Positions 5,620-19,943 of a stretch of 64,000 nucleotides of DNA are shown here, piece by piece. The stretch's first letter is position 1; each line of letters starts with the position of its first letter. The position numbers and the translations under genes are program-made. The stretch covers positions 93,914 through 157,913 of the forward strand of contig JBDRPD010000003.1 in NCBI GenBank assembly GCA_043827405.1, written 5' to 3'. Below the pieces are notes generated by a model. The model was not told where the DNA came from, did no database searches, and was given only the letters and a program-made list of their open reading frames with translations. Origin of the DNA: Elusimicrobiota bacterium. GTDB lineage: Bacteria; Elusimicrobiota; Elusimicrobia; UBA1565.

Positions 5620-6523
5620 GGGCTTTTTCCCGGTAGGGAGTCGGCGTCGTCGACAGGCTGATCTTCCGGCCGACCAAGGCGGGCGAGGGGATCTTGCCGA
5701 TACGGCCGTCCTGCGCGTCCTCGTGATTGGCGATATCCAGGTCGGCTAGAATCTTGAGCCGGATCACCGCGACCTTGGTCACTTCGGGCGGCACTTCGAA
5801 AAAGGGCGTGAATTCCTCCTCGTCTCCGATGCGGTACTGGATCAGACCGCGCCAGGGTCCGGGCACAATCTCAATCTCGCTGACGCCGCGGACAGCGGCG
5901 TCGGCCAGCAGCGCATCGACGAAATCCACGATCGGCATGTCGGCTTGGTCTTCGCTGCCTTCTTCCTCCTCCCGGCACTTGACGTTGTCGTCCAGCCGTG
6001 TCGACAGTTCGGCCTCAAAGCCCTGGATGGCGTTGCAGTCCTCGAAAGTTACCTGGAAGTGAAAGGTCTTTTTCTCGGCGAGATCGGCGTGCCGCAGCAG
6101 CTCCTCGATATCGGGGTCTCCCAGCGCGGGCCTAAGGCTGTCGGCGAGCTGCTTAAGCTCGCGGAGCAGGGGACGGTAGTCCGTGAGGGAATCCTCGAGC
6201 CATACAAAGTCCTCGAGGTCCCAATAGTCGATGGTCTTGAGGGCTACGTCCTTGCCGGCGCAGTACTCGTACTGGCACAGCCGCACCAGGGCGCGCATGA
6301 TGCGATCGATGTGGAGATAGGCGGTCTTGAGGTCCGCAAGTTGATCGCTTTCCGCTTTTGCGGCCGCGAGTTTATACCAGTCATCGTAGGGCCCGGCCAA
6401 AAAAAGCTGACCCTGCTCGGCCTCGAAGCCGCCGTTGGTGATGTCCCGGTTGACGTAGGCCATCAGCGTCTTCACGTTGCCGAGAATAAATTCCAGGCCG
6501 GCCTGCAGCTTGGCGTTGGACAT
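5603..6523 (-). CDS. Hypothetical protein ending in a GspE/PilB N2-like domain with no ATPase domain
   Basis: PIVDFVDALLADAAVRGVSEIEIVP...IQYRIG...RLKILADLDIANHEDAQDGRI...STTPTPYREKALIRL matches the PilB/GspE segment preceding the ATPase; no Walker A. Confidence 0.7.
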   Translation of the reverse strand: MSNAKLQAGLEFILGNVKTLMAYVNRDITNGGFEAEQGQLFLAGPYDDWYKLAAAKAESDQLADLKTAYLHIDRIMRALVRLCQYEYCAGKDVALKTIDYWDLEDFVWLEDSLTDYRPLLRELKQLADSLRPALGDPDIEELLRHADLAEKKTFHFQVTFEDCNAIQGFEAELSTRLDDNVKCREEEEGSEDQADMPIVDFVDALLADAAVRGVSEIEIVPGPWRGLIQYRIGDEEEFTPFFEVPPEVTKVAVIRLKILADLDIANHEDAQDGRIGKIPSPALVGRKISLSTTPTPYREKALIRLD

Positions 6524-6564
6524 GTCCGCTAAGTTTAAGTGGAAAACGCGGTCTTTTCAAGTTT

Positions 6565-6645
6565 AGATAAGGTGCCAGGCAGGTTATCTAAAGCTAGTAC
6601 TAACTCAGCCTGATCTCTTCAGATAACCTGCCTGGCACCTTATCT
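6565..6645. repeat. REP doublet (REPIN-like): perfect 25-bp inverted repeat with a 31-bp spacer
   Basis: AGATAAGGTGCCAGGCAGGTTATCT (6565-6589) and its exact reverse complement (6621-6645); the same motif flanks the Y1 transposase. Confidence 0.88.
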
Positions 6646-6669
6646 GGGCAAATTGGTAGAATAGCGCCG

Positions 6670-7623
6670 ATGTTGGCCATTCCTGCCGTCGACGAATCCC
6701 TGGAACGCGTACGCGAAGGGTTGGAGCGCCGAGTCGTCACCCTCGGGGGACGCGTCGGCGATCATTTGGCCGAATATATCGGCCGCCCGGGCAAGATGCT
6801 GCGCGCGCGTTATACTTTGCTGCTGGGCGCCGCGCTGGGCGCGGACCAGGGCTTGTGCGAGAAAGTCGCCCGCGCCGTGGAACTGGTGCACAACGCCTCG
6901 CTGCTGCACGATGACTGCATCGACGAGGCCCTGCTGCGCCGCGGAGTGCCGACCCCTAACGCCCGCTTCGGCGACCGCACCGGCATCCTGCTGGGCGACC
7001 TGGCCTTCACCGAGGGGATGGCGGAGGCGGCCGCGGTCTCTCCCCAGGCGGTGGCCGAACTGGTGCGGGCCGTGCGTGAGATGACGGTGGGCGAGCTTCA
7101 GGAGGAGTACCTCTGCGGCAGCCTCAACGTCTCGCTGGAAGGCTACTACGGCGTCGCCGTGCGCAAGACCGCGGCGCTTTTTGACTGGGCGGGGCGCGCC
7201 CTGTCGGGTTGCTCGCCGCTTGAACATGACCGGGAGAACCCGGCCAAGCTCGGCCGCTCGGCCGGCATCCTGCTGCAGATCATCGACGACATTCATGACT
7301 ACACCCTGGATGAGGATACCGCGGGCAAGGATCCCGGCCAGGATTTCGCCAACGGCCGGCTGACTTTACCGGCGATCCTGGCCTTGGACGACGAGGAGAC
7401 GCGTCCGCGCTTTCTGGAACTGTGGCAGAGCCGGGCGCGCGACCCGGAGGCCTTCGACAAGGCGCTCGCGCTGCTGCAGGAACGCGGCCATCTCGAAGCG
7501 GCGCGCGGCATCGCGCGCGAGATCATGGAGGGCATGATCCCCATGGCGGAAGCGCTGCCCGAGCGCGAGGCGGCCGGCCGGATGAAGGAATTTTTGCAGC
7601 TGCTGTTCGCGCGGGAGTTCTGA
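6670..7623 (+). CDS. Polyprenyl diphosphate synthase (trans-IPPS, probably long chain)
   Basis: GKMLR, FARM HNASLLHDDCID..LRRG, KTAALF, SARM QIIDDIHD, GKD.GQDF.NG..TLP; small residue upstream of the FARM suggests a long product. Confidence 0.93.
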   Translation: MLAIPAVDESLERVREGLERRVVTLGGRVGDHLAEYIGRPGKMLRARYTLLLGAALGADQGLCEKVARAVELVHNASLLHDDCIDEALLRRGVPTPNARFGDRTGILLGDLAFTEGMAEAAAVSPQAVAELVRAVREMTVGELQEEYLCGSLNVSLEGYYGVAVRKTAALFDWAGRALSGCSPLEHDRENPAKLGRSAGILLQIIDDIHDYTLDEDTAGKDPGQDFANGRLTLPAILALDDEETRPRFLELWQSRARDPEAFDKALALLQERGHLEAARGIAREIMEGMIPMAEALPEREAAGRMKEFLQLLFAREF

Positions 7624-8075
7624 TGGGGTCCCGCTACCAGAAGTTGGTGCGCAATGCCTGGAAGTCGGGCCAGTACAAGGCGGAGACCGGCGGCGCCGAA
7701 GACGGCGGCGGCGGCGACGCCGCGAACCTGCGGACCCTGCTGCGCTCGAGAATGGAGTGGATCGTGGAGCGTGAGGCGTACGAATTCAAGGGGGCCGAGC
7801 TTCAGCCCAAGGAGAAACCTGCGATGAAATTGGCGCAATATGTGAAGTACCGCGAAGAGAAGTTCGGCGGCGTGCTCTTTGAGACCCGTTCGGAGAAGGT
7901 GTTCACTTTGAGCCCGACCGGTTCGGCGATCGTCAAGGAGATCGTGGCCGGCGGCACCAGCGAGGAGATCGCCTCGCGCCTGAAGGATAAGTACCAGGAT
8001 AAAAACAGCGCGATCGAGAAAGAGGTCGCCGAATTTATCGGCTCGCTGAAGGAAAAAGGCCTGGTCACCGAGTAA
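7623..8075 (+). CDS. PqqD/MftB-like RiPP recognition element, possibly with a 67-aa N-terminal extension
   Basis: From ATG 7824 (AAGGAG RBS): VKYREEKFGGVLFETRSEKVFTLSPTGSAIVKEI..G.TSEEIASRL..KY...IEKEVAEFIGSLKEKGLV, a PqqD-type pattern; in-frame upstream ATG at 7623 overlaps the previous stop (TGATG). Confidence 0.88.
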   Translation: MGSRYQKLVRNAWKSGQYKAETGGAEDGGGGDAANLRTLLRSRMEWIVEREAYEFKGAELQPKEKPAMKLAQYVKYREEKFGGVLFETRSEKVFTLSPTGSAIVKEIVAGGTSEEIASRLKDKYQDKNSAIEKEVAEFIGSLKEKGLVTE

Positions 8076-9059
8076 GTGGAAACGGCCAAGAAAGCCCTGC
8101 CCTCGGAGAGCCCGGCCGATACCGGCACGGGGGATCTCGGCGCGCCCCTCTATGTCGCCTGGCAGATAACCAATGAGTGCAACTTGGCCTGCCTGCACTG
8201 CATCGAGGAGAGCGGCCCGGGCAAGGCATTCAAGGACGAGCTGCCGAAAGACAAGGTCTTCGCTGTGCTCAAGGAGCTGCTCGACGCCGAGGTTCCGTAC
8301 CTGGCGTTTTCGGGCGGCGAGCCGATGATGCATCCGCACTTTTTCGAGATGGTCGAGTTCGTTACCCGGGGCGGCTCCGAGCTGAAGGTCGAGACCAATG
8401 CGCATCTGCTTGACCGCGACGCCTGCCGGCGTCTGGCCGGCTGCGGCATCCGCGCCGCCCAGGTCAGCATGGACGGCGCTTCCGCCGAGACCTATCAGCG
8501 CCTGCGCGCTCGCGGCAGCTTCGACAAGATGCTGGAGGGCGTGCGCGGCCTCAAGGACGCGGGTGTTCCTATCGAAATCAACTACTCGCCGACCAAGTTC
8601 AACGCCGGAGAGATTTCCCGCGCCGTCGACCTCGCCTACGAGCTCGGGGCCGAGAGCTTCTTTACCGGGCGCACCATGTACACCGGCAATGCCGTGCGCG
8701 CCTGGGACCATATCGCTCCTTCCGCCGAGCAGTATGAACGCTTCTTCGCGGATCTGCGCGCGGCTTGCGACAAGTACGAGGGGAAGCTGCGCGTTCACTA
8801 CCACGAGATGGGACTCGTTGAGGAGCTGCGCTACCGCATCAAGCATCCGGCGGCCCTCTTCATTGTTCTGCCCAACGGCTTGGTCAAGCTTATCAACGCC
8901 CTGCCCTTCGTCTGCGGCGACCTGCGCGAGGACTCGGTGCTCGAGGTGTGGCGGAACTTCCAAACCGCCTGGAAAAATCCCCAGGTCGCGGAGTTCGTCG
9001 AGTCTCTGGCGGCCGAACCCAAGCTGACCTCGGAGCTGCATAAATGGGTGCGATTGTAA
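8076..9059 (+). CDS. Radical SAM enzyme 1, MftC/PqqE-like
   Basis: APLYVAWQITNECNLACLHC, FSGGEP, ETNA, QVSMDGA; GTG start abuts the RRE stop. Confidence 0.93.
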   Translation: METAKKALPSESPADTGTGDLGAPLYVAWQITNECNLACLHCIEESGPGKAFKDELPKDKVFAVLKELLDAEVPYLAFSGGEPMMHPHFFEMVEFVTRGGSELKVETNAHLLDRDACRRLAGCGIRAAQVSMDGASAETYQRLRARGSFDKMLEGVRGLKDAGVPIEINYSPTKFNAGEISRAVDLAYELGAESFFTGRTMYTGNAVRAWDHIAPSAEQYERFFADLRAACDKYEGKLRVHYHEMGLVEELRYRIKHPAALFIVLPNGLVKLINALPFVCGDLREDSVLEVWRNFQTAWKNPQVAEFVESLAAEPKLTSELHKWVRL

Positions 9060-9988
9060 AAGATCCGCCGCATTATCAGCGTCCCGCAGGCGCCTGGGGC
9101 GCTTGGGCCCTGCTGTGGAAGATATTCAGCGTGGTGCGCTACCGGTTCTTTCTCTATGCCGGGCTGCTGCCGTACTTGCTGGGCGCGGCCTGGGCTTATG
9201 TCGTGGGCGGCGCCTTTAACCCCCCGGTGTTCTGGATCGGGTTCTGCGGCATATTCCTCTCCGTTGTCGGGGTCGAGGCCTTCAACGAGTACTTCGACTC
9301 GCGTCTGGGGACCGACCGGGTATTCAACCCGGAGGACGAGGATCCGATTCCCGCCTGGGTGCTGGGGCTCGGCATCGCCGCCTTCGCCGCGGCGGCGGCG
9401 ACGGGCATCTATCTCGCCAAGGCCGGCGGCTGGCCGGTCATCCTGTACATGTGCCTGGGCGGCTGCGCCGCGGTGTTTTATGTCGGCCCGCCGATCCGCT
9501 GGGTGTATCGCGGGCTGGGCGAGACCATGATCGCCCTGTCCTATGGGCCGTGGATGGTGCTGGGCAGCCTGCACCTGCAGACGCACGCTTTCTCCTGGGG
9601 AGCGCTCCTGGCGTCCCTGGTTCCCGGGCTGCTGATCATGAGCCTGGCGGTGGTTAACGCGATCCCCGATTTCCATCAGGACCGTTTGGTCGGCAAACGC
9701 AATATCGTCGTGCGCGTCGGCCGCTATAACGGCGTCCTCGTCTATCTCGGCTGCTCGCTTCTGGGGCTGGGTATCCCGGTCTTCGGCGCGGTGCTCGGCG
9801 TCTTCAGCAAGTGGACCTTGCTGACCCTGCTCGCCCTGCCCTTGTGGTGGTCCAGCCGCCGCGCGGCCCTGGCGCACTACGATACGCCGCGCGATTTCGT
9901 GCCGGCGGTGCGCGCGATCGTGCTGTGCTATCTGACGGCAACGAGCTTGTTTATCGTCTCGCTGTTTCTGAGCCTGATTAAATGGTGA
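9044..9988 (+). CDS. UbiA-superfamily (MenA-like) membrane prenyltransferase
   Basis: Multiple TM helices; FNEYFDSRLGTD, YRGLGE and NAIPDFHQDRLVGKRN motifs. Confidence 0.92.
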   Translation: MGAIVKDPPHYQRPAGAWGAWALLWKIFSVVRYRFFLYAGLLPYLLGAAWAYVVGGAFNPPVFWIGFCGIFLSVVGVEAFNEYFDSRLGTDRVFNPEDEDPIPAWVLGLGIAAFAAAAATGIYLAKAGGWPVILYMCLGGCAAVFYVGPPIRWVYRGLGETMIALSYGPWMVLGSLHLQTHAFSWGALLASLVPGLLIMSLAVVNAIPDFHQDRLVGKRNIVVRVGRYNGVLVYLGCSLLGLGIPVFGAVLGVFSKWTLLTLLALPLWWSSRRAALAHYDTPRDFVPAVRAIVLCYLTATSLFIVSLFLSLIKW

Positions 9989-10968
9989 GCACGGCGCACA
10001 TCGACAGCCTGCGGGCGCCGCTTATGGTTTCCTGGCAGCTGACCCGCGGCTGCAACCTCGCCTGCCTGCACTGCTGCACCGAATCCGCGCCGGGTAAGGT
10101 CCTGGAGGGCGAGCTGAACCGGGCCGAGGCCCTGCGCTTCGCCGCCCGGCTCATCGAGGCGGATGTCCCCTATGTCATGCTCTGCGGCGGCGAGCCGTTC
10201 ACCGTGGAGTGGTTTCTCGATGTCGCCAGCCGGCTCGGGAAAAGCGGCGTGCAGCTGAAGATCGAGACCAATGCCCAGCATCTGGAAGGGTTCGCGCTCG
10301 ATGTCCTCGCCCGCCTGCCGGTGCGCTCGATCCAGGTCTCCTTGGACGGCGCGTCGCAGACGGCCTACGGCGCCCAGCGGGCCGGCGGCGATCTCGAGAA
10401 GGCGCTCGACTCCTGCCGGCGCATCCGCGCGGCCGGCCTGCCGCTGGAGATCACCTTCGCTCCCACCGTCTATAATATCCACGAAGGAGAAGCGGTCCTG
10501 CGCCGGGCGGTAGAGCTGGGAGCCTTCCGCTTCAATACCGGCCGCCTGATGCGCATCGGCACCGCCGCCAAGTTCTGGGACAAGCTCGATCCGCCGGAGC
10601 GTCATTGGCATGAGTTCCTGGAAATCCTCGAACAAGCGGAACGGGAGTTTTCAGGAGAGATCGAACTTTGCTATCGTCCCTTTACGATCCAGGAAGGTTT
10701 GCGTGAAGGCTTGTCGGCGCCGCCGGCGACCCTCCTGGTTCTGCCGCACGGCAAGGTCAAGGTGGCGGCTTCGTTGCCTTATATTTGTGCGGACGTGCGT
10801 CGGCAGTCGATCGCGGAATGCTGGGACGCCTACCGGGCGGCTTGGCGGCGTCCAGAGGTGCATAAGGCGATCGAAGCGGTGCTGAAGGATCCGGGCTTCC
10901 TCGAAGAAGCCAACTGCTGGCGGCCGTTGGACGAAGAAGAGCAGTCCGTACCGATTTCCCGCACCTGA
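9982..10968 (+). CDS. Radical SAM enzyme 2, paralog of enzyme 1
   Basis: APLMVSWQLTRGCNLACLHCC, CGGEP, IETNA, QVSLDGA. Confidence 0.93.
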   Translation: MVSTAHIDSLRAPLMVSWQLTRGCNLACLHCCTESAPGKVLEGELNRAEALRFAARLIEADVPYVMLCGGEPFTVEWFLDVASRLGKSGVQLKIETNAQHLEGFALDVLARLPVRSIQVSLDGASQTAYGAQRAGGDLEKALDSCRRIRAAGLPLEITFAPTVYNIHEGEAVLRRAVELGAFRFNTGRLMRIGTAAKFWDKLDPPERHWHEFLEILEQAEREFSGEIELCYRPFTIQEGLREGLSAPPATLLVLPHGKVKVAASLPYICADVRRQSIAECWDAYRAAWRRPEVHKAIEAVLKDPGFLEEANCWRPLDEEEQSVPISRT

Positions 10969-11034
10969 GGGTGCGGAACAGATCTGCCGCCGGTCCATGG
11001 GCCGGTAGTGGAACTCCGTGATCATGGAGATCGT

Positions 11035-11145
11035 ATGAACGAGAAGAACATCGCGATTAAGGTTGAGAAGCTCGAGTGGGAGACGCCCTGTCTTGAGGAA
11101 GTATCCCAGCGGGTGATGGCTCAGCCCTACATTCGCTTCACGTGA
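11035..11145 (+). CDS. Putative RiPP precursor peptide, 36 aa: MNEKNIAIKVEKLEWETPCLEEVSQRVMAQPYIRFT
   Basis: Manual translation; GGAGA RBS at 11026-11030; TGA overlaps the GTG start of radical SAM 3 (GTGA); WxxPxL resembles RRE-binding leader motifs. Confidence 0.82.
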   Translation: MNEKNIAIKVEKLEWETPCLEEVSQRVMAQPYIRFT

Positions 11146-12125
11146 GCAATCAGAGGGGGGCATCGGTAGGCGACTACCGCGCCCCCCTCTTTCTCGCGTG
11201 GCAGCTGACCAACCGCTGCCAAGCGCACTGCCTCACCTGCTGCGAGGAGTCCGGGCCGGAGAATGCCTGGAAAGACGAGCTCGCGGAGGATGAGGCTGTT
11301 TCTTTCGCCTGCCGCATCGTCGAATCCGGCATCCAGTACGCGGCTTTCGGCGGCGGCGAACCATTGGCCGTTCCCCACTTCTGGAAGATCGCCCGCATTC
11401 TGGCCTCGGGCGGCGTCGAGCTCAAGCTCGAGACCAACGGCCTGCCCATTGACGACGAGAAGGCCGACATCCTGCAGGCGCTCAAGGTCTTGTGCGTGCA
11501 GATTTCCGTCGACGGAGCGAGCAAGGAAACTTTCGAGAAGGTGCGTCCCGGCGGCGACTACGACGGCGTCATCGCCGCGATCAAGCGGCTGGTCGCGCGC
11601 GGCCTGCATCCCGAATACGTCTTCGTGCCCAACCGGCTCAATGTCCATGAGGCGGCCGCGGCCTACGATCATGCCGTCGACCTCGGCTGCCGCACCTTCG
11701 TCACCGGGCCGATGATGCGCCTCGGCCGCGCGGCGGCGGGCTGGGACGAACTGTCTTTAAACGATGAGCAGTGGAAGGCCGCGGAGGAAGCCCTGCGTGA
11801 GCGCGAGGCCGCGCACCGGAAAGCGGTCAAGCTTTCGATTTATCCCTGGGACATTCGCACCGAGCTGGAGAAGCGCCTGCTCGAGCCGCAGGCCCTGCTT
11901 CTGGTCGTGCCCAACGGCAAGGTCAAGCTGCTCAACGCCCTGCCCTTCGCCCCCGCCGATGTCCGCCAACACAATATCGAGGAAGCCTGGAGACTCTACA
12001 AGGAAGCCTGGAAGTCCGACGAAGTCGAGCACTTCATCAAGGCCTGCCGCACCCGCCCGGAGCTTCTGCTCCACGCCAACGAAACCTGGCCCATGGGGCA
12101 ATGGGCCGCACTTAATCCCGCCTAA
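11142..12125 (+). CDS. Radical SAM enzyme 3, paralog of enzymes 1 and 2
   Basis: APLFLAWQLTNRCQAHCLTCC, FGGGEP, LETNG, QISVDGA. Confidence 0.93.
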   Translation: MSNQRGASVGDYRAPLFLAWQLTNRCQAHCLTCCEESGPENAWKDELAEDEAVSFACRIVESGIQYAAFGGGEPLAVPHFWKIARILASGGVELKLETNGLPIDDEKADILQALKVLCVQISVDGASKETFEKVRPGGDYDGVIAAIKRLVARGLHPEYVFVPNRLNVHEAAAAYDHAVDLGCRTFVTGPMMRLGRAAAGWDELSLNDEQWKAAEEALREREAAHRKAVKLSIYPWDIRTELEKRLLEPQALLLVVPNGKVKLLNALPFAPADVRQHNIEEAWRLYKEAWKSDEVEHFIKACRTRPELLLHANETWPMGQWAALNPA

Positions 12126-12137
12126 TCCCCCTCAGTA

Positions 12138-13136
12138 AAGGTGCCAGGCATGTTATCCAAAGGAACTTTTTTTCCTGCGGGTCGTACTCGGAGATGTACG
12201 TCCTTGGTTTATATGCCTCGAATCCCCAGACCTGATAGTGCGAGAGCCTTTGTGCATGTCGTCGCTCGCGGCAATAACAAGGCGCGAATATTCCTTGATG
12301 TAATTGATAATTCGGAGTTCGTCAGGTTGCTCTCCTTGGGGATTTCACGTTATGGGGCGGAGCTGCATGCTTATTGCTTGATGCCGAACCATATCCATTT
12401 ACTGCTTCGCGATGCTTTAGGCCGGCTGTCGGATATGATGGAGTGGACTCTGGGGAATTATGCCAGAAAGTTTAATAAGCGCCATGGAAGAGTCGGACAT
12501 GTTTTCCAAGGCAGGTACCGTGCAAAATTGATTATCCGGACAACCCACTTCTATGTGGCAGGTCGCTATATCCACATGAACCCTGTCCGAGGAGGGTTGT
12601 GTGAACGACCGGAAGATTACCCCTGGAGCAGTATGAGGGCATATCTTGGATTGGAAGAGGCCGGCTTGTTGTCGAGAGAGTCATTGTGGGCGCCGTACTC
12701 AGATTTGGGTTTGGGGTCTGTATCCGCGATGTATGAGTTTACGACGCGCACTCCGTATGCTTCAGATCATGCCGCGTCAGCAGTGCCCGATGGAGTGGCC
12801 GGTAATGCGCTACGTGCCGCCGTGGTAGCTCGGCCTCCAGGTGAGATGCGGGTGATCGAAGAAGTCGCGAACCTCTTCGACGCAAGTGCCGGCGCGTTGT
12901 TGGAGCGCAGCAGAAGACGCCGCTTGAGGATCGCTCGATCAGTCGCGATGCTGGCAGTTAGGGATAAGATCGGAATGCCGCTCGCCGATATCGCACGAAT
13001 TTTCGGTATGAAATCCCAAAACGGCGTCTCGCTTGCGATTAACCGGCTGCGTAAACGAGCATGTGCCGATCGTTGTCTGGTGAATAGGCTGACAGATTTA
13101 GGTTTGACCACGATTGGATAACCTGCCTGGCACCTT
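12138..13136. mobile_element. RAYT-type element: Y1 transposase gene flanked by inverted REP-like repeats
   Basis: AAGGTGCCAGGCATGTTATCCAA (12138-12160) and TTGGATAACCTGCCTGGCACCTT (13114-13136) are inverted with 22/23 identity; interior visibly lower GC. Confidence 0.85.
12213..13121 (+). CDS. REP-associated tyrosine transposase (Y1/HUH) with C-terminal DnaA_C-like HTH
   Basis: MPRIPR, HVVARGNN, YCLMPNHIHLL (HUH), GHVFQGRY, YIHMNPV, YPWSS; C-terminal ARSVAM...PLADIARIFG. Confidence 0.9.
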   Translation: MPRIPRPDSARAFVHVVARGNNKARIFLDVIDNSEFVRLLSLGISRYGAELHAYCLMPNHIHLLLRDALGRLSDMMEWTLGNYARKFNKRHGRVGHVFQGRYRAKLIIRTTHFYVAGRYIHMNPVRGGLCERPEDYPWSSMRAYLGLEEAGLLSRESLWAPYSDLGLGSVSAMYEFTTRTPYASDHAASAVPDGVAGNALRAAVVARPPGEMRVIEEVANLFDASAGALLERSRRRRLRIARSVAMLAVRDKIGMPLADIARIFGMKSQNGVSLAINRLRKRACADRCLVNRLTDLGLTTIG

Positions 13137-13154
13137 ATCCCTTATCTACCTTAT

Positions 13155-13781
13155 CTATTGGGAAAAGCGGCGGTCGGCGTTCTCGAATACCTTCAGCACC
13201 CGGTCCTCGGTGTTGCCGCGCAGCAGGCGCAGCGGCACCAGGTAGTAGAAGAGCCAGTGCGAGCGCGCTTCTGCTGTTAATTCGATATCGAGGTGTTCGG
13301 GGCTGTCAGTTCGTTTAGATAACATGCCTGGCACCTTATCTGAAGGATGGAAGGTCAGCTCGCAGCGGACGTCCTGGACCAGGCGCGTCGGCGTTTCGAG
13401 CTTGGCGATCAGACGCGGCGGCTTCTCATCGAGGCGGTCCTCGACCAGCAGCGTCAGCGAGTGGGACCCCTTGAAGTAGCGGCTGAAGCTGTAGTCGAAG
13501 CGGAAGCGCCGGTGCGCCGCCTCATAGCGCAGGCCGTCGATGGATATCATGTACGCCTTCTCGCGGCCGGCGCGCGGTTCGTTGATGTCGCGCAGCGCCC
13601 ACTTCTCGTAATCCGCGAAGCCGCGCAGCACCGGCAGGGCGCGAATAAAATTAACGCTGATGGGCCCCGCGCCGGTTAGGTGAAATCGTCCATCGCTCTT
13701 TGTCAGGCGGGCGGAAGCGGCTTCGAGGGGCGCGCAGAGTAGGAGAAGCAGCCCCGCCGCCGTTAGTGGCAGGCGGCGCAT
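13155..13781 (-). CDS. Secreted hypothetical protein (possible START/SRPBCC-like fold) containing an in-frame REP copy
   Basis: Signal peptide MRRLPLTAAGLLLLLCAPLEA; ATG overlaps the end of the cytochrome gene. Confidence 0.65.
   Translation of the reverse strand: MRRLPLTAAGLLLLLCAPLEAASARLTKSDGRFHLTGAGPISVNFIRALPVLRGFADYEKWALRDINEPRAGREKAYMISIDGLRYEAAHRRFRFDYSFSRYFKGSHSLTLLVEDRLDEKPPRLIAKLETPTRLVQDVRCELTFHPSDKVPGMLSKRTDSPEHLDIELTAEARSHWLFYYLVPLRLLRGNTEDRVLKVFENADRRFSQ
13317..13341. repeat. REP copy inside a coding sequence
   Basis: AGATAACATGCCTGGCACCTTATCT, 24/25 identical to 6621-6645; encodes DKVPGMLS on the minus strand. Confidence 0.85.
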
Positions 13782-14536: not shown

Positions 14537-17500
14537 ATGCGGATAGCGAACAGGCTCTTGGCCGCGTTTATCGCTTGCTCTTTAGCGGCGCAGCCCGCGC
14601 TGGCTCAAGTCAAGGTTGTCGGCGTAAAGGCTGTTGCTCCGAATGTCTCCGCAGCCGCCGGTGCCGCAGGGGTTAAGGCGCTCGCACCGCTGAGTTTTAC
14701 CCCGACATCTCTGCAGCTGAACTCCGCGGTTCTGCCCAGCGTCGAAAATCTTCAGCTCCAGCCGTCAAGTCAGCTCAAGCAGCTCTCGCAGCCCGCTGCC
14801 GTCGTCGGGCCCTCCGCATCGGCGGTCAAAGAGACCGCGCCGGCCAAGACCGTTTTTCAGAAGAAGCTTAATGCCATCGGCAAAGCGGTCGAAGACGCCG
14901 GCCGCGGCGCGGAGAATAAATCCGCCGAAGGCGGCAAGCTCGCCGCGGACAAGCAGTTCCATGCTCTGGGTATCAGCGCCGGCGAAGAGGACTTCGCCCA
15001 GCTCTTCGAGGAGAGCCTCTCGGCTTGGGAAAAGGGCGCGCTCAAGCCCGCCGCCGGCGGCAGTACCGCCAAAGAGCTCCTGGCCGAAGATACGCCGCAT
15101 TTTACCGGCGAGCAGCTGCAGCATATCCGGCAAGCCAGCCGCGCCATGGAAGCCGCGGTGACCAAGGCGGCCGCGCAGCTTTTGCCGGGAGCCGGTATCC
15201 GGGCGGTGTCGCGCGGTTCGAGCGCGCGCCTCACGCAGGACGACACGCGGGTGGACTACGACATCATGGCGGCGCTGCCCGCCGACTGGTCCGCCGACAA
15301 GGTTCACAGCTTTATGCAGGAGCGCCGCAAGGACTTGAGCGCCGCCTTGGAGAGCGCGATCCGCGAGGAGGCCGCGGCGCTGTTTCCCGGGCAGGATATC
15401 GAGGTGGAGGCCGGCTCTTATGTCCAGCTGTCCGATCCGGTGACGCATTCTCCCGATAAGGGCGTCTATATGCTGCCGGTTAAAGTGCTCAGCGCCGAGG
15501 GGAAGGTCCTGCTCGACGCCGACGTAACCTTTACCAATCTGGCGAAGTACACCAACGACTATCCCGGCTACTTCGCGGCGCAGCTGGAGCAGGTGGCGCA
15601 GCTGGGCGGCCAGGGGGCGGTCGATGAGGTGCTCGGTTCCATCCGCCTGGCCAAGCGGATGTTCAAGGAAGTCGTGGGCGCCTACAAGGTCTGGCGCGGC
15701 GGCCCCAGCGGCGTCGGCGTCGAGCAAATGATCATGCAGTCGGGCCGCGTCGAGAGCGCCGACAAGGGACAGACCGTGCTCGAGCCCGGCGACTTCGACA
15801 AGTTCATGGATCGCATCAACGATATCGCTTTCGACCAGGACGGCCGCTACCGCGGCCTCAAACAGGCGGCGCGATTGTGGAGCGTCTTCAACCCTTTCCG
15901 CGAGCCGGTCAATTTTCTGACCCACCTCAGCGACAAGGCCTGGCGGCGCCTGGCCGACGCGGCGCGCAATTACCGCATGGCCAAGGTCGCGGGCCGCCCC
16001 GTTTCCTTCAAAGAGCTGGGCTACCGCCGGCCGGATCCGCAGGCGGCGTTGGCCGCTTCCAAGCCGGCCGAATTGCCGGTGCGCGAGACAACGACTTTAG
16101 CCTTCGGCTTCACGTCCGCGCAGGAGAAGATCAATATGCAGCGGGCGGTGCGCGAGGCGGTGCGCGCGCTGCCCGAATCCAAAGAGAAGATCGCGGCGGC
16201 GACGCTGACCGGCGGCCGGGCCAACAAGACCAATTCCTACCAGCTGTCGCTGGTGGTCGAGGGCGGCGCCGGCATGGAGATCACCCAGCTGCTGCGCGAC
16301 CAGCTGAGCTTCAGCGACCGCTCAGTCGAATACGAGGGAGAGGCCGCGGTGCGGAAGAACCGCGATCTGCTCGTCTTCTTCCGCGCCCAGGGCAAGTCGT
16401 ACCAGCCAAAAACTCTCGACCTGGTGCAGAAGGCCGCCAAGCGGCTGGCCCGGCACTTCAAGAGCAGGGGGAGCGTCACGGTCGGCCAGCGCCCCGGTCC
16501 GGGCGGGGAGTTTATGGCGGTGGTTAAGCTCGAGCCGAACGCCGAGGCGGCGGCGGTCGGCAAAGAGATTCAGGAGTTCTTCCGCACGGCGGGCGGCGGC
16601 ATGCGCCTGACCGGGGTTTCGTTGCCGGCCGGTGTTCCCACCTCCCAGGCCCGGGCTCCCAAGGAAGACGCCGGCGAGGAGAGCGCCGGCAAGGGGAGCG
16701 CCGGCAGAGAGAGCGCCGGCGGGGTCACGCTTGAGATGCTGGAAAAGTTTACCACCCACGGCCCCAAGCCTTCCCGGCGCGGCGACGCCTATCTTTACGC
16801 CCAGGGCGCCAAGGTCCTGCCGGCGGGTTTCGAAGCCGCCTGGGCGAACCGGCCGGAGGCCGGGTCCGGCGGCGGCGACACAATACAGCGCAGCCTGCTG
16901 CTGCGGCGGGGCGGCAAGACTTACGTCCTCGTGCCCACCATCCGGAGCGACGGCGAGCCGGGAATGAAGCCCGCCAATGTCTCTCCCGAATTGGCCGCGG
17001 GAATTATCACCGATACTCTGGTTGAGGCCGAGCTAAGGGACGGCCAAGTCGTTTCGGTTAAGCCGATCGGCTCTTATGCCATGGACATGATGATCGGGCG
17101 GGCGAGAAAGAATAACGGCCGGTGGATGCTCGATGCCTTGCTGCGCGACGGCAAGAATCCCAAGACGCTTTACGGCCGCATGCCGCTGGCCGGCGCTGAG
17201 AACCTTAAGGAAGGCGAGATCGTGCAGGCCTTCATCAAGCCCGACGGCCGCGGCTACTCCGCCGAGGCCATGCTCGACCTCGGAGCGGAGCTCACTCCCG
17301 AGATCGTCGCCCGCGAGATCGCTCTGCGCCATGGCGCGCGCGGCTACTTCGAGAAAGCCGTGATCGAGCAGGCCGAGAAGGCGGGGGCGAGCGGGAAAGC
17401 GCCGCCCAAGTTCCGGGATTTGCGCGAGTTCGCTTTCGTCACCGTCGACCCCATCGGCGCCGGCGATCTAGACGACGCCTTCTATGTCGAGAAGCATGCC

Positions 17501-18835
17501 GACGGCGGCTATACCTGGTACCTGGCGACCGCCGACGTCGACCAGTTCGTGCCGCCGGGAACGCCGGCCTTCCGCACCGCCGCCCGCATCGGCAATACCT
17601 TCTACTCCATCGACAAGGACGGGGTGCCGGAATATCCCATGAATCATCCCGTGGTCTCGAAGTATGCGGCCAGCCTGCTGGCCGGCAAGGACAGCCTGGC
17701 GATGATTACCCGCATGCGCTTCGGTCCGAACGGCGAGTTCCTCAAGGACGAGTCCGAAGTCTTCCTCGGCGAGGTGCGGGTGCAGGGACGCTACACCTAT
17801 GAGCAGGTCGTGGATTTATGGCAGGACCGCGCCGGTCACGGTATCGAGCATGTCGAGCAGATCACCCTGGCCCGCGAGCTGGCCTCCAAGCTCGACGCCA
17901 GCGACGCTCAGCGCGGCAAGCTGGCCTTGCGCTTCCAGCAGGTCGCGCACAGCCCGCAGGCGGACGGCACCTGGCGGAGCGCGGTCGTGGAGGAGGACCC
18001 GCACCTAACCGAGTCGCACAAGCTCATCGAGGAGCTCAAGGTCTACGGCAACCGCGCCATCGCCAAACTTCTTGAACGCATCACCGCGGAATACGGCGTC
18101 CCGCATATCAGCCGCGTCCATCCGCAGCAGGAGGAGGCGATCAACCGCAAGCTGCGCAAGAATATCCAGAAGCTTGGACTGCGCTGGGAGAAGGACGAAA
18201 ACCTGTGGGACTTCCTGCGCGGCCTGCAGGAGCGCGCGGACCTGACCGACGAGGGGCGCGAGGTCGCGCAGATGCTTGCTTTGATGACGCGGCGCACCGC
18301 GCAGTACGAGATCAAGGATGCTGACGGCCATGAGGGGCTGGCGCTGGAGGCCGGCATGTACGACCACCCCTCGACGCCCATCCGGCGCTTCGCCGATATG
18401 TATAACCGGGCGATTCTGGAAGCCTACCTTGAGGGCCGCGACCCGCGCGAGCACTACGCCGCGGTGCAGAAGGACCTGACCGATATGGGCTTTCGCGGGC
18501 TGGAAGAGTATATGCTCCACCTCAACGGCCGCGAGGCGGCGTCCAAGCTGATGGACCGCGAGGTCGACGAGTTTATGTCGATCTACGAGCTGGCCAAGCC
18601 CGAGCACCAGGGCAAAACCTACCGCGCCTATGTGAAGATCTTCCGCGACGGCCGCAACCCGCTGGCGGTGCTGCAGCTGCGCGACCTGCCGGTCAGCATC
18701 ACGCTGAAAGGCGACGAGGTCGGCGACTGGAAGCTGCTCGACGAGCTGGAGCTGACCATCCACGGCGCCGATCCTGAGCGCGCCAAGGTCGACGCCTCGG
18801 TGCGCAAGCTCGGCCGCCTGCCGGCGCTTAAGTAG
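14537..18835 (+). CDS. Large signal-peptide protein: class I nucleotidyltransferase-like domain plus RNB (RNase II/R) domain and S1-like tail
   Basis: RNB motifs FVTVDPIGAGDLDDAF, ATADVDQFV, SHKLIEE, GHEGLAL..YDHPSTPIRRFAD; N-terminal RGSSARLT....VDYDI resembles the pol-beta motif. Confidence 0.82.
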   Translation: MRIANRLLAAFIACSLAAQPALAQVKVVGVKAVAPNVSAAAGAAGVKALAPLSFTPTSLQLNSAVLPSVENLQLQPSSQLKQLSQPAAVVGPSASAVKETAPAKTVFQKKLNAIGKAVEDAGRGAENKSAEGGKLAADKQFHALGISAGEEDFAQLFEESLSAWEKGALKPAAGGSTAKELLAEDTPHFTGEQLQHIRQASRAMEAAVTKAAAQLLPGAGIRAVSRGSSARLTQDDTRVDYDIMAALPADWSADKVHSFMQERRKDLSAALESAIREEAAALFPGQDIEVEAGSYVQLSDPVTHSPDKGVYMLPVKVLSAEGKVLLDADVTFTNLAKYTNDYPGYFAAQLEQVAQLGGQGAVDEVLGSIRLAKRMFKEVVGAYKVWRGGPSGVGVEQMIMQSGRVESADKGQTVLEPGDFDKFMDRINDIAFDQDGRYRGLKQAARLWSVFNPFREPVNFLTHLSDKAWRRLADAARNYRMAKVAGRPVSFKELGYRRPDPQAALAASKPAELPVRETTTLAFGFTSAQEKINMQRAVREAVRALPESKEKIAAATLTGGRANKTNSYQLSLVVEGGAGMEITQLLRDQLSFSDRSVEYEGEAAVRKNRDLLVFFRAQGKSYQPKTLDLVQKAAKRLARHFKSRGSVTVGQRPGPGGEFMAVVKLEPNAEAAAVGKEIQEFFRTAGGGMRLTGVSLPAGVPTSQARAPKEDAGEESAGKGSAGRESAGGVTLEMLEKFTTHGPKPSRRGDAYLYAQGAKVLPAGFEAAWANRPEAGSGGGDTIQRSLLLRRGGKTYVLVPTIRSDGEPGMKPANVSPELAAGIITDTLVEAELRDGQVVSVKPIGSYAMDMMIGRARKNNGRWMLDALLRDGKNPKTLYGRMPLAGAENLKEGEIVQAFIKPDGRGYSAEAMLDLGAELTPEIVAREIALRHGARGYFEKAVIEQAEKAGASGKAPPKFRDLREFAFVTVDPIGAGDLDDAFYVEKHADGGYTWYLATADVDQFVPPGTPAFRTAARIGNTFYSIDKDGVPEYPMNHPVVSKYAASLLAGKDSLAMITRMRFGPNGEFLKDESEVFLGEVRVQGRYTYEQVVDLWQDRAGHGIEHVEQITLARELASKLDASDAQRGKLALRFQQVAHSPQADGTWRSAVVEEDPHLTESHKLIEELKVYGNRAIAKLLERITAEYGVPHISRVHPQQEEAINRKLRKNIQKLGLRWEKDENLWDFLRGLQERADLTDEGREVAQMLALMTRRTAQYEIKDADGHEGLALEAGMYDHPSTPIRRFADMYNRAILEAYLEGRDPREHYAAVQKDLTDMGFRGLEEYMLHLNGREAASKLMDREVDEFMSIYELAKPEHQGKTYRAYVKIFRDGRNPLAVLQLRDLPVSITLKGDEVGDWKLLDELELTIHGADPERAKVDASVRKLGRLPALK

Positions 18836-19098: not shown

Positions 19099-19905
19099 AT
19101 GAAAACGATCCTGTCCCCTATTGCCGTTCTGCTGGCCGCCGCTCTATGCATCCCCGCGGGGGCCGCCGAGAAACTCACCGCACGCCAGATCATGCAGAAG
19201 CAGAAGGATCTGCATAAGACGACGAGCGAGATCGAGTTCCAGAAGATGATGCTCATCGACCGCAAGGGGGACAAGGAGCTGCGCGAACTGCGCCGCTACA
19301 ACCTCGAGACCGGCAAGGACCTCTATAAATATCTCCTCGTCTTCCTCTCGCCCAAGGATATCCGGGGGACCTCGCTTTTGACCTGGCAGAAGGAGGGCGG
19401 CGAGGACGACCAGTGGATCTACATGCCGGCCTTGGGGCGCAAGCTCAAGCGCATGGCCAAGGGCAGCAAGAAGGGCTACTTCATGGGCACCGACTTCACC
19501 TACGCCGACCTGTCGCCGGAGCCGCTTGACGACAATACCTACAAGCTTATCGGCGAAGAGAAGCTCGAGGGCCAGGAGGTCTGGATCATCGAGTCAACGC
19601 CCGTCCCGGCGAAGCTGCAGGCAAGCGCCTATTCCAAAAAAGTGCTGCGCGTGCGCAAGGACATCTTCTTTACCGTCCAGATCGAGTTCTACAACCCGCG
19701 CGGCAAGCATATCAAGACCCAGACCATGTCCGGCATCAAGCAGATCCAGGGCACGATCCACCGCGCCGACAAGGCCCTGATGGACCATCTCCAGCGCGAG
19801 CACAAGACGGTCATGATGGTCACCGAGCGCGAGCTCAACGCCAAGGTCGATCCGGAGATCTTCAGCGAGCGCTCGGTGCTCAAGGAAGAGACGCTCGGAA
19901 ACTAG
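19099..19905 (+). CDS. Outer-membrane lipoprotein-sorting (LolA-like) periplasmic protein
   Basis: Signal peptide; FLSPKDIRGTSLL, DDQWIYMPAL, FMGTDFTYADL. Confidence 0.88.
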   Translation: MKTILSPIAVLLAAALCIPAGAAEKLTARQIMQKQKDLHKTTSEIEFQKMMLIDRKGDKELRELRRYNLETGKDLYKYLLVFLSPKDIRGTSLLTWQKEGGEDDQWIYMPALGRKLKRMAKGSKKGYFMGTDFTYADLSPEPLDDNTYKLIGEEKLEGQEVWIIESTPVPAKLQASAYSKKVLRVRKDIFFTVQIEFYNPRGKHIKTQTMSGIKQIQGTIHRADKALMDHLQREHKTVMMVTERELNAKVDPEIFSERSVLKEETLGN

Positions 19906-19943
19906 TCCAGGGCGACCGTCGAGCCGGTTAAAGGAGCGCGAGC

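Follow-up and report, generated by a model that had tools for sequence, protein, structure and literature searches.

Can the machinery that matures a small ribosomal peptide and the machinery that attaches an isoprenoid tail belong to a single pathway? This question is raised by an operon of seven co-oriented genes at positions 6670-12125 (+ strand) of a 64,000-nucleotide stretch of DNA from an Elusimicrobiota bacterium (assembly GCA_043827405.1, contig JBDRPD010000003.1, positions 93,914 to 157,913), and this whole stretch is called the window below. A sequence-only reading of the operon had proposed that it combines the logic of peptide-derived cofactors, in which a PqqD-like protein and radical S-adenosylmethionine (rSAM) enzymes act on a short peptide, with that of lipoquinone tails, in which a polyprenyl diphosphate synthase supplies a UbiA/MenA-type prenyltransferase. 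The explanation that we favor, with a confidence that stops a little short of even, is that the operon is one layout (type A) of a widespread, unnamed cassette that would use a small ribosomal peptide as the source of a polyprenylated molecule, bound to the membrane and working with respiratory complexes. This product is possibly an electron carrier.

The seven-gene operon

Scans of open reading frames (ORFs) and of Pfam families bore out the seven genes and the families that had been named for them, as follows:

6670-7623, + strand: trans-polyprenyl diphosphate synthase (IPPS), 317 aa (PF00348, 150.5 bits)
7623-8075, + strand: PqqD-like protein, a candidate recognition element for a ribosomally synthesized and post-translationally modified peptide (RiPP), 150 aa from the ATG at 7623 (PF05402, 45.4 bits)
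8076-9059, + strand: rSAM1, 327 aa (PF04055, 79.2 bits)
9044-9988, + strand: MenA-like UbiA-family membrane prenyltransferase (UbiA below), 314 aa (PF01040, 67.2 bits)
9982-10968, + strand: rSAM2, 328 aa (PF04055, 64.9 bits)
11035-11145, + strand: precursor peptide, 36 aa (no family match)
11142-12125, + strand: rSAM3, 327 aa (PF04055, 69.7 bits)

The packing is as tight as had been described, with junctions of -1, 0, -16, -7, +66 and -4 bases, and the 66-base gap before the peptide gene is the only one. The sequence GGAG sits 7-10 bases 5′ of the ATG of the peptide gene, and the rSAM3 gene starts with a GTG and overlaps the peptide stop codon by 4 bases. All seven genes missed the curated cut-off of every NCBIfam model (June 2026). 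The Pfam and NCBIfam scans also confirmed that pqqB/C, mftD/E/F, a protease or peptidase and a transporter are absent from among the operon genes; the search for PqqB and PqqC gave no match in the seven genes or their immediate neighbors, and the remaining genome was not searched for them.

Recurrence of the cassette

Relatives of the UbiA protein at E ≤ 1e-10 numbered more than 2,364 among 8,000 scored candidates. The best 119 of them (the window's own protein excluded) were 62-82% identical to it, and the organism, where named, was a member of the Elusimicrobia in every case except one Burkholderiales. Species-representative genomes were scanned with a profile of 19 UbiA sequences; 250 genomes matched and the best 80 loci were kept. 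By title, 52 of these loci are from Elusimicrobia/Elusimicrobiota, 23 are from Alpha-, Beta- and Gammaproteobacteria (the carriers include Steroidobacteraceae, Casimicrobiaceae, Burkholderiales, Acidiphilium, Acidocella and Rhodopila) and 5 are labelled only as bacteria.

Gene order was read by tblastn with the window's proteins, and only loci with enough flanking sequence were counted. It was found that 60 of 60 such loci (37 labelled as Elusimicrobia, 18 proteobacterial and 5 labelled only as bacteria) have the order PqqD-rSAM-UbiA-rSAM-peptide-rSAM; therefore, the arrangement is far from chance. Beyond the cassette, every other gene family occurs in at most 19 of the UbiA-anchored loci. An IPPS gene lies directly upstream in 41 of the 44 Elusimicrobia-labelled loci that have room for it and in 4 of 4 loci labelled only as bacteria, and in 0 of 19 proteobacterial loci. 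A dedicated IPPS is an optional member of the cassette.

Because the UbiA-anchored set is blind to a peptide that occurs without UbiA, a separate search was anchored on the peptide, by scanning metagenome contigs with a degenerate DNA pattern for its last nine residues and stop codon. This search gave at least 120 stretches, and 80 loci were analyzed. The gene order of the window (type A) was present in 60 of the 80, a shorter layout (type B) consisting of peptide, PqqD, one rSAM and UbiA in 15, and the layout of 5 could not be classified. Type B is sometimes accompanied by a prenyl diphosphate synthase gene, located directly after the cassette in locus L155 and two genes further in L152. When the contig was long enough to reach the position of UbiA, which we call a testable locus, UbiA was at the expected place in 24 of 26 cases (19/20 for type A, 5/5 for type B and 0/1 for the unclassified loci). 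The one type A miss, L090, has two NuoM/N-like genes at the rSAM2 position and its contig ends 141 bases past the peptide, and it is probably another layout cut short.

The RiPP-type module and the MenA-like prenyltransferase thus occur together in both sets of loci. In the combination put forward by the sequence-only reading, the coupling of peptide maturation and prenyl transfer stands as real and conserved, whereas the IPPS does not stand as a constant member.

The precursor peptide

The 36-residue peptide consists of a variable leader, a docking-like stretch (W-x-x-P-x-L-E-[ED]-V-S) and the tail VMAQPYIRFT. The leaders differ in length and sequence, W-x-x-P-x-[LMI]-E-[ED]-V-[ST] is kept across copies, and the tail, which is the last ten residues, does not differ among the 74 complete copies (that of the window and those of 73 loci). 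These identical tails are encoded by 47 distinct 30-nt strings that differ at third codon positions. Therefore, the peptide ORF is translated and under strong purifying selection. Cys19 of the window peptide is not conserved, and the spacing from the conserved Trp to the C-terminus may resemble that of PqqA.

A profile of the peptide was compared with 1.84 billion representative proteins, yielding 99 clusters at E ≤ 0.001 (78 at E ≤ 1e-10), nearly all of them 30-78 residues long with the match at the C-terminus; the profile was built from peptides with this tail, and more divergent relatives may have escaped. The C-terminus P[YFC]IRF[TS] is present in 92 of the 99 cluster representatives. Within these 92, a set that was itself selected by the pattern, Val27 is replaced by Ile in 16, Met28 by Thr, Ile or Val in 4, and Gln30 by Arg in 2. 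None of 31 peptides was matched at E ≤ 10 by a PqqA, MftA or other NCBIfam peptide model, and the peptide profile gave chance-level matches only in the PDB and NCBIfam.

The PqqD-like protein and the radical SAM enzymes

The PF05402 match of the PqqD-like protein is confined to residues 85-149 of the 151-aa translation read from 7620, and the protein is below the cut-off of each of the NCBIfam PqqD, lasso-PqqD and MftB models. The Elusimicrobia-type proteins have an N-terminal extension of about 65 residues (7623-7820 in the window; L004:6533-6979 is a further example of such a protein), which is semi-conserved among the aligned Elusimicrobia-type ORFs and has no family match. The PqqD-like ORFs of proteobacterial loci are mostly 83-109 aa (up to 185 aa), and most of them seem to lack this extension.

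The CX3CX2C motif is present in every aligned sequence of rSAM1 (75/75), rSAM2 (75/75) and rSAM3 (62/62), and in rSAM1 it is C35-x3-C39-x2-C42. The conserved Cys residues beyond this cluster are C117 and C280 in rSAM1, C32, C145, C230 and C269 in rSAM2, and C34 and C118 in rSAM3, which lacks the Cys of the ALPFxC motif. The SPASM domain is defined by a seven-Cys motif that holds auxiliary clusters; with only 2, 4 and 2 extra conserved Cys, the three enzymes gave no match to it (PF13186) at E ≤ 0.01. When an AlphaFold2 model of rSAM1 (pLDDT 92.6) was compared with solved structures by Foldseek, the top matches were SkfB (TM 0.73), PqqE (6c8v, rank 2), BlsE and SuiB, and the closest solved chains by sequence were SkfB, BlsE and PqqE. 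In a maximum-likelihood tree, the single rSAM of type B groups with rSAM1 (support 89/79), and rSAM2 and rSAM3 form clades of their own (100/100 and 100/99, respectively). We therefore regard PqqD, rSAM1 and UbiA as the core of the cassette, and rSAM2 and rSAM3 as additions of type A.

These data bear on an explanation in which the rSAM enzymes act on the isoprenoid or another lipid, by cyclization, methylation or coupling, while the peptide serves as a scaffold, small subunit or regulator. The lipid-modifying rSAM enzyme GDGT-MAS is among the Foldseek matches of the rSAM1 model (rank 18, TMq 0.55), and the absence of SPASM Cys sets would suit such a role, but the proteins that match best in structure and sequence are peptide maturases (SkfB, PqqE, SuiB and MftC), the PqqD-type peptide-binding protein is fixed in the cassette, and the peptide tail is invariant. 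We consider lipid-directed rSAM chemistry very unlikely.

In loci L143, L139, L068, L073 and L160, the cassette rSAM genes were split into several shifted tblastn pieces, which could be frameshifts or assembly errors.

The prenyltransferase and the prenyl diphosphate synthase

The UbiA protein exceeds the PF01040 cut-off of 34.2 bits, and the NCBIfam models that it matches at E ≤ 0.01 comprise nine for MenA and one for a generic prenyltransferase. It misses every MenA cut-off (the best model, NF004751, gave 100.4 vs. 264 bits, and TIGR00751 gave 63.8 vs. 102.15); with 110.6 bits for TIGR00751, a true MenA of this phylum is above the cut-off. Two Asp-rich motifs are the signature of the UbiA superfamily; the residues N81, D85, D91, D209 and D213 do not vary among 19 sequences, and in a set of 80 each is conserved to at least 95%. 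The only PDB relative found by profile is UBIAD1 (E 1e-6). Identity between phyla is 60-74%, which is unusually high conservation. A search of the Atlas gave generic prenyltransferase clusters only. A prediction of a complex between UbiA and the peptide, run without controls, scored 0.01 relative to a mark of 0.32 and gave no answer.

In a tree of 38 sequences, the type A and type B enzymes form a clade with one true MenA (100/99), apart from 4-hydroxybenzoate UbiA, MqnP-like proteins, CyoE (heme O synthase) and ChlG; the tree has this single MenA reference and the branching order inside the clade is not settled. ChlG is the next clade, with weak support (88/72). The type A enzymes are monophyletic (100/98) and fall into an Elusimicrobia-type half (7 rows, one of them labelled only as a bacterium) and a proteobacterial half (8 rows) separated by short branches, which would fit either strong constraint or transfer between phyla.

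The best NCBIfam matches of the IPPS are solanesyl-, nonaprenyl-, heptaprenyl- and octaprenyl diphosphate synthases (C35-C45), all below cut-off, and an alignment of 47 sequences shows that both of its Asp-rich stretches (LLHDDC.D and DDihDy) are kept. The enzyme is probably of the long-chain type; the small residues before the first Asp-rich motif would also point to a long product. This gene is one of only two PF00348 genes in the host genome.

The host genome is 98% complete and has three UbiA-family genes: that of the cassette, a heme-O-synthase-like gene that adjoins a cytochrome oxidase subunit II-like gene (as judged by eye from the ORF translation), and a HAD-fused UbiA gene. No MenB over cut-off, MqnA/D, MqnC, or MenG/UbiE over cut-off was found in this genome. 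The sequence-only reading would have fallen if the cassette UbiA were the ordinary MenA of its host acting on 1,4-dihydroxy-2-naphthoate (DHNA). This candidate was rejected, because the enzyme misses the MenA cut-offs and no pathway through DHNA or futalosine was found in the genome. Tetrapyrrole tailoring, with AhbD/NirJ-like rSAM enzymes and a heme-O-synthase-like UbiA, was rejected as well, because the cassette enzyme groups with MenA and not with CyoE or ChlG; the PqqD-like protein and peptide, as fixed parts of the cassette, also disfavor it.

It is conceivable that the cassette does two linked but separate jobs, with UbiA prenylating a free small aromatic compound and the peptide, PqqD and rSAM proteins making a separate cofactor, or with a head-group precursor that is not the peptide. 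The family matches lend themselves to this explanation, in that the best of them are all DHNA prenyltransferases, the only PDB relative is UBIAD1 and the enzyme shares a clade with a true MenA. The genetics do not: the UbiA gene lies between rSAM genes and overlaps their reading frames, it is found together with the peptide, in two gene orders, in nearly all of the testable peptide-anchored loci (24/26), no other head-group genes belong to the cassette, and the DHNA and futalosine pathways were found neither in the host genome nor in five proteobacterial carriers. Separate jobs are, in our estimate, distinctly unlikely.

Respiratory genes and quinone pathways around the cassette

The case for a respiratory role of the proposed polyprenylated product comes from neighboring genes, which are stronger evidence on physiology than the survey of quinone pathways given below. 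The flank maps are rough, with one representative annotated per BLAST cluster and ORFs in GC-rich loci filtered by GC content at third codon positions. With maps of this kind, quinone-linked respiratory genes were found within 8 kb in 10 of 17 mapped proteobacterial loci. The sets in these 10 loci comprise NapC/NirT with MtrB/PioB and MtrC/OmcA-like cytochromes, FrdA/SdhA with an FeS subunit, FdhE with a molybdopterin oxidoreductase, and NiFe hydrogenase. Four more of the 17 have only pyruvate:ferredoxin oxidoreductase, and one has only HypD.

Genes of a similar kind are present in the peptide-anchored loci. In L155 (type B) a six-gene Nqr/Rnf-type set, the last gene of which encodes an NqrF-like subunit, lies immediately before the cassette, RnfC/D-like genes lie downstream in L152, and in L090 the peptide is preceded by the two NuoM/N-like genes mentioned above. 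Two loci (L125:223-6852 and L162:4750-10218) share a block upstream of the peptide that encodes a NuoF-like FMN/FeS protein fused to a pyridine-nucleotide-disulphide oxidoreductase, as well as CBS-HATPase, PHP, HATPase and Fer2/Fer4 proteins; the L162 block also has a DRTGG-domain gene, and the L125 peptide has TauE, an MBL-fold protein and a 2-oxoacid dehydrogenase operon downstream of it.

The host genome encodes NuoH and a cytochrome bd quinol oxidase, a profile that would be compatible with the cassette supplying a quinone-like carrier but does not discriminate. Five proteobacterial carriers had neither MenB over cut-off (0/5; one reached 313.8 vs. 342.7 bits) nor MqnA/D (0/5), and 4 of the 5 had a 4-hydroxybenzoate UbiA over cut-off. 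In a fixed sample of 301 genomes of the phylum, the following counts were obtained:

Cassette-type UbiA (at least 324 bits): 29/301 genomes, all in families f1 and f3
MqnA/D: 21/301 genomes, all in families other than f1 and f3
MenB over cut-off: 0/301 genomes
CydA: 32/301 genomes, including 13 of 22 in family f5
NuoH-like: 147/301 genomes, widespread

NuoH was dropped as a marker of quinone use because it is too widespread. The absence of the menaquinone and futalosine pathways is equally common in relatives that lack the cassette; it is therefore not discriminating, and we rejected it as support.

The same sample held a weaker cassette-type UbiA match (278 bits; G210:C28:25969-26856) in a sister family, with an in-frame TAA. 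This copy may be decaying.

A proposed pathway and its main alternative

The chemical steps and the function that we infer are as follows, peptide prenylation and a redox role being suggested by the gene neighborhood. By analogy with its family, the PqqD-like protein would bind the leader at the W-x-x-P-x-L-E-[ED]-V-S stretch. The rSAM1 enzyme would then abstract a hydrogen in the invariant tail, leaving a cross-link, or a change of similar kind, around the aromatic residue 32; in type A, rSAM2 and rSAM3 would add further changes. The MenA-like UbiA would prenylate the modified tail, or a head group excised from it, with a long chain made by the operon's own synthase here and, in Proteobacteria, by the product of a gene located elsewhere. 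Housekeeping peptidases would remove the leader, and the product would reside in the membrane and serve quinone-type respiratory enzymes as a cofactor or carrier.

A narrower form of this proposal is that the cassette is a peptide-based route to a respiratory lipid carrier, in which a head group built by rSAM enzymes is polyprenylated and does the job of a low-potential quinone. Its partners would be Nqr/Nuo, fumarate reductase, CymA/Mtr, hydrogenase and formate dehydrogenase, in hosts lacking the menaquinone and futalosine pathways. We regard this form as doubtful.

Several observations weigh against the proposal of a membrane-bound respiratory molecule. No peptidase, transporter or oxygenase belongs to the cassette. 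The flanks of the Elusimicrobia loci, including the window, hold housekeeping genes or genes without assigned function. Orphan peptide copies, with no cassette genes nearby, are present in L125, a testable locus, and in L161, which was not counted as testable. In the sister family f5, the 13 CydA-positive genomes include only one with MqnA/D and none with the cassette, and the complementarity between the cassette and the futalosine pathway is confounded by lineage and may reflect only one or two events. Furthermore, position 32 of the peptide is Phe in 4 and Cys in 1 of the 92 pattern-selected representatives. The Phe variants are four single-member clusters (P0206, P0209, P0210 and P0212) with type-B-like leaders. 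Therefore, the tyrosine hydroxyl is not universally needed, a Tyr-derived quinone is weakened, and the chemistry on Tyr32 or Phe35 suggested by the sequence-only reading did not find support.

Since a product in need of the tyrosine hydroxyl has become less probable, weight shifts to a lipid-anchored oligopeptide without a redox role of its own, such as a membrane-tethered assembly factor, ligand or regulator of respiratory complexes. The C-terminal residues would stay in place, and UbiA would alkylate the Thr hydroxyl, the Arg guanidine, the C-terminal carboxylate or a cross-linked ring. The Tyr to Phe variants suit a structural better than a quinone role, and retention of the whole tail would agree with its identity in all 74 cassette copies, with the Pro, Ile, Arg, Phe and Thr/Ser kept in 92 of 99 representatives (a set chosen by the pattern) and with the lack of a peptidase in the cassette. 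The UbiA superfamily also includes enzymes that alkylate hydroxyls and carboxylates, and ChlG, the chlorophyll synthase of this superfamily, is the next, weakly supported (88/72), clade. However, the clade that the cassette enzyme shares with MenA has known members that prenylate aromatic carbons; MftA-type peptides are highly conserved although only two of their residues reach the product; and no partner protein was identified. An anchored peptide of this kind is, on balance, unlikely.

If the preferred explanation of a polyprenylated molecule working with respiratory complexes is correct in its redox form, it would have consequences beyond this operon. To our knowledge, only two peptide-derived redox cofactors have been found, pyrroloquinoline quinone (PQQ) and mycofactocin, both of which are soluble. 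The cassette product would be a third, with a long isoprenoid tail, and would link the chemistry of ribosomal peptides to the energetics of membranes. Such a cofactor might account for the way in which low-potential respiratory enzymes are supplied in some anaerobes and in Proteobacteria that have ubiquinone only, and its synthesis would be a new type of reaction for the UbiA/MenA family. The minimal four-gene form and the invariant ten-residue tail make the question directly testable.

Surroundings of the operon

The operon is followed by a transposase gene, and a 21-base motif resembling a repetitive extragenic palindrome (REP) occurs in 5 copies (at most 2 mismatches), compared to 0 expected:

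6569-6589, + strand: REP-like motif
6621-6641, - strand: REP-like motif
12138-12158, + strand: REP-like motif
12141-13121: next gene after the operon, IS200-like transposase resembling REP-associated tyrosine transposases (RAYT), also with a DnaA C-terminal helix-turn-helix domain
13116-13136, - strand: REP-like motif
13317-13337, - strand: REP-like motif

One inverted pair lies just 5′ of the operon and a second pair brackets the RAYT-like gene; therefore, the operon is flanked by REP/RAYT elements. Promoter and terminator scans of 6300-13400 gave a number of sites not above that in shuffled sequence. Two metatranscriptome runs yielded 0 contigs and one 33-base partial contig, respectively, which is too little to judge expression.

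Bracketing by REP-like repeats and a RAYT-like gene would be in keeping with an ordinary secondary-metabolite RiPP, for example a lipidated antimicrobial or a signalling peptide like prenylated ComX, and prenylated RiPPs do exist, in the cyanobactins and ComX. Yet the cores of natural-product RiPPs vary widely, whereas the cassette core is identical across phyla; the operon encodes neither a transporter nor a leader peptidase or immunity protein; the synthase is probably of the long-chain type; and the gene neighborhoods are respiratory. We hold a secondary metabolite to be highly improbable.

Further downstream, a gene at 14537-18835 (+ strand) encodes a 1,432-aa protein with a single Pfam match, to an RNB (RNase II/R) domain, at residues 960-1299; its first ~950 residues have no match. 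At 19099-22673 (+ strand), the gene for a LolA-like protein precedes that for a 909-aa MMPL/sterol-sensing-type transporter with a cyclic-nucleotide-binding domain fused to its C-terminus.

Comparison with known systems

As the sequence-only reading had claimed for described pathways, no characterized family in NCBIfam and no publication matched the gene set. Our literature searches found no description of the cassette, with thin coverage of subscription journals, and a prior description is possible. The review PMC11002830 does not mention UbiA, MenA, PqqD or polyprenyl. The core is homologous in kind to PqqA/D/E and MftA/B/C but fails the defining features of both.

The likeness to PQQ biosynthesis consists of a short ribosomal peptide with a C-terminal core and a conserved aromatic residue near the C-terminus, a PqqD-family protein (PF05402) and a PqqE-related rSAM (6c8v, Foldseek rank 2). 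The PqqA motif, given as E-X3-Y in PMC12423496, is different: in the cassette peptide the residue four before Tyr32 is never Glu, and 88 of 92 representatives have Met there. The PqqD model TIGR03859 gave 26.6 bits vs. a cut-off of 46, and the PqqE model TIGR02109 gave 81, 49.8 and 48.6 vs. 381. In addition, the cassette rSAM enzymes lack SPASM Cys, the operon lacks pqqB/pqqC, and a membrane prenyltransferase is a fixed member.

Mycofactocin biosynthesis likewise uses a PqqD-type chaperone and an rSAM on a peptide with a strongly conserved tail, and MftC is the first or second best NCBIfam match of all three rSAM enzymes. However, the MftC model TIGR03962 gave 118.7, 86 and 96.1 bits vs. a cut-off of 265, and the MftB model TIGR03967 gave 18.1 vs. 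33. MftA ends in Val-Tyr, which is decarboxylated by MftC, whereas the cassette peptide ends in IRFT. The operon has no MftD, MftE or MftF, and tailoring would be performed by a UbiA prenyltransferase within the cassette instead of the glycosyltransferase of mycofactocin.

Relative to MenA and UBIAD1, the cassette UbiA groups in one clade with the single MenA reference of the tree, has the same Asp-rich motifs and adjoins a dedicated trans-IPPS that is probably of the long-chain type. It differs in missing the MenA cut-offs, in the lack of a detected DHNA or futalosine pathway and in always being embedded among peptide-maturation genes.

The prenyltransferases of cyanobactins and the ComX/ComQ system resemble the proposed pathway in that a ribosomal peptide would receive an isoprenoid. 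Those systems use soluble ABBA-type or ComQ-type enzymes, C5-C15 donors and variable peptides, whereas the cassette has an integral-membrane UbiA, a synthase of probable long-chain type and an invariant peptide.

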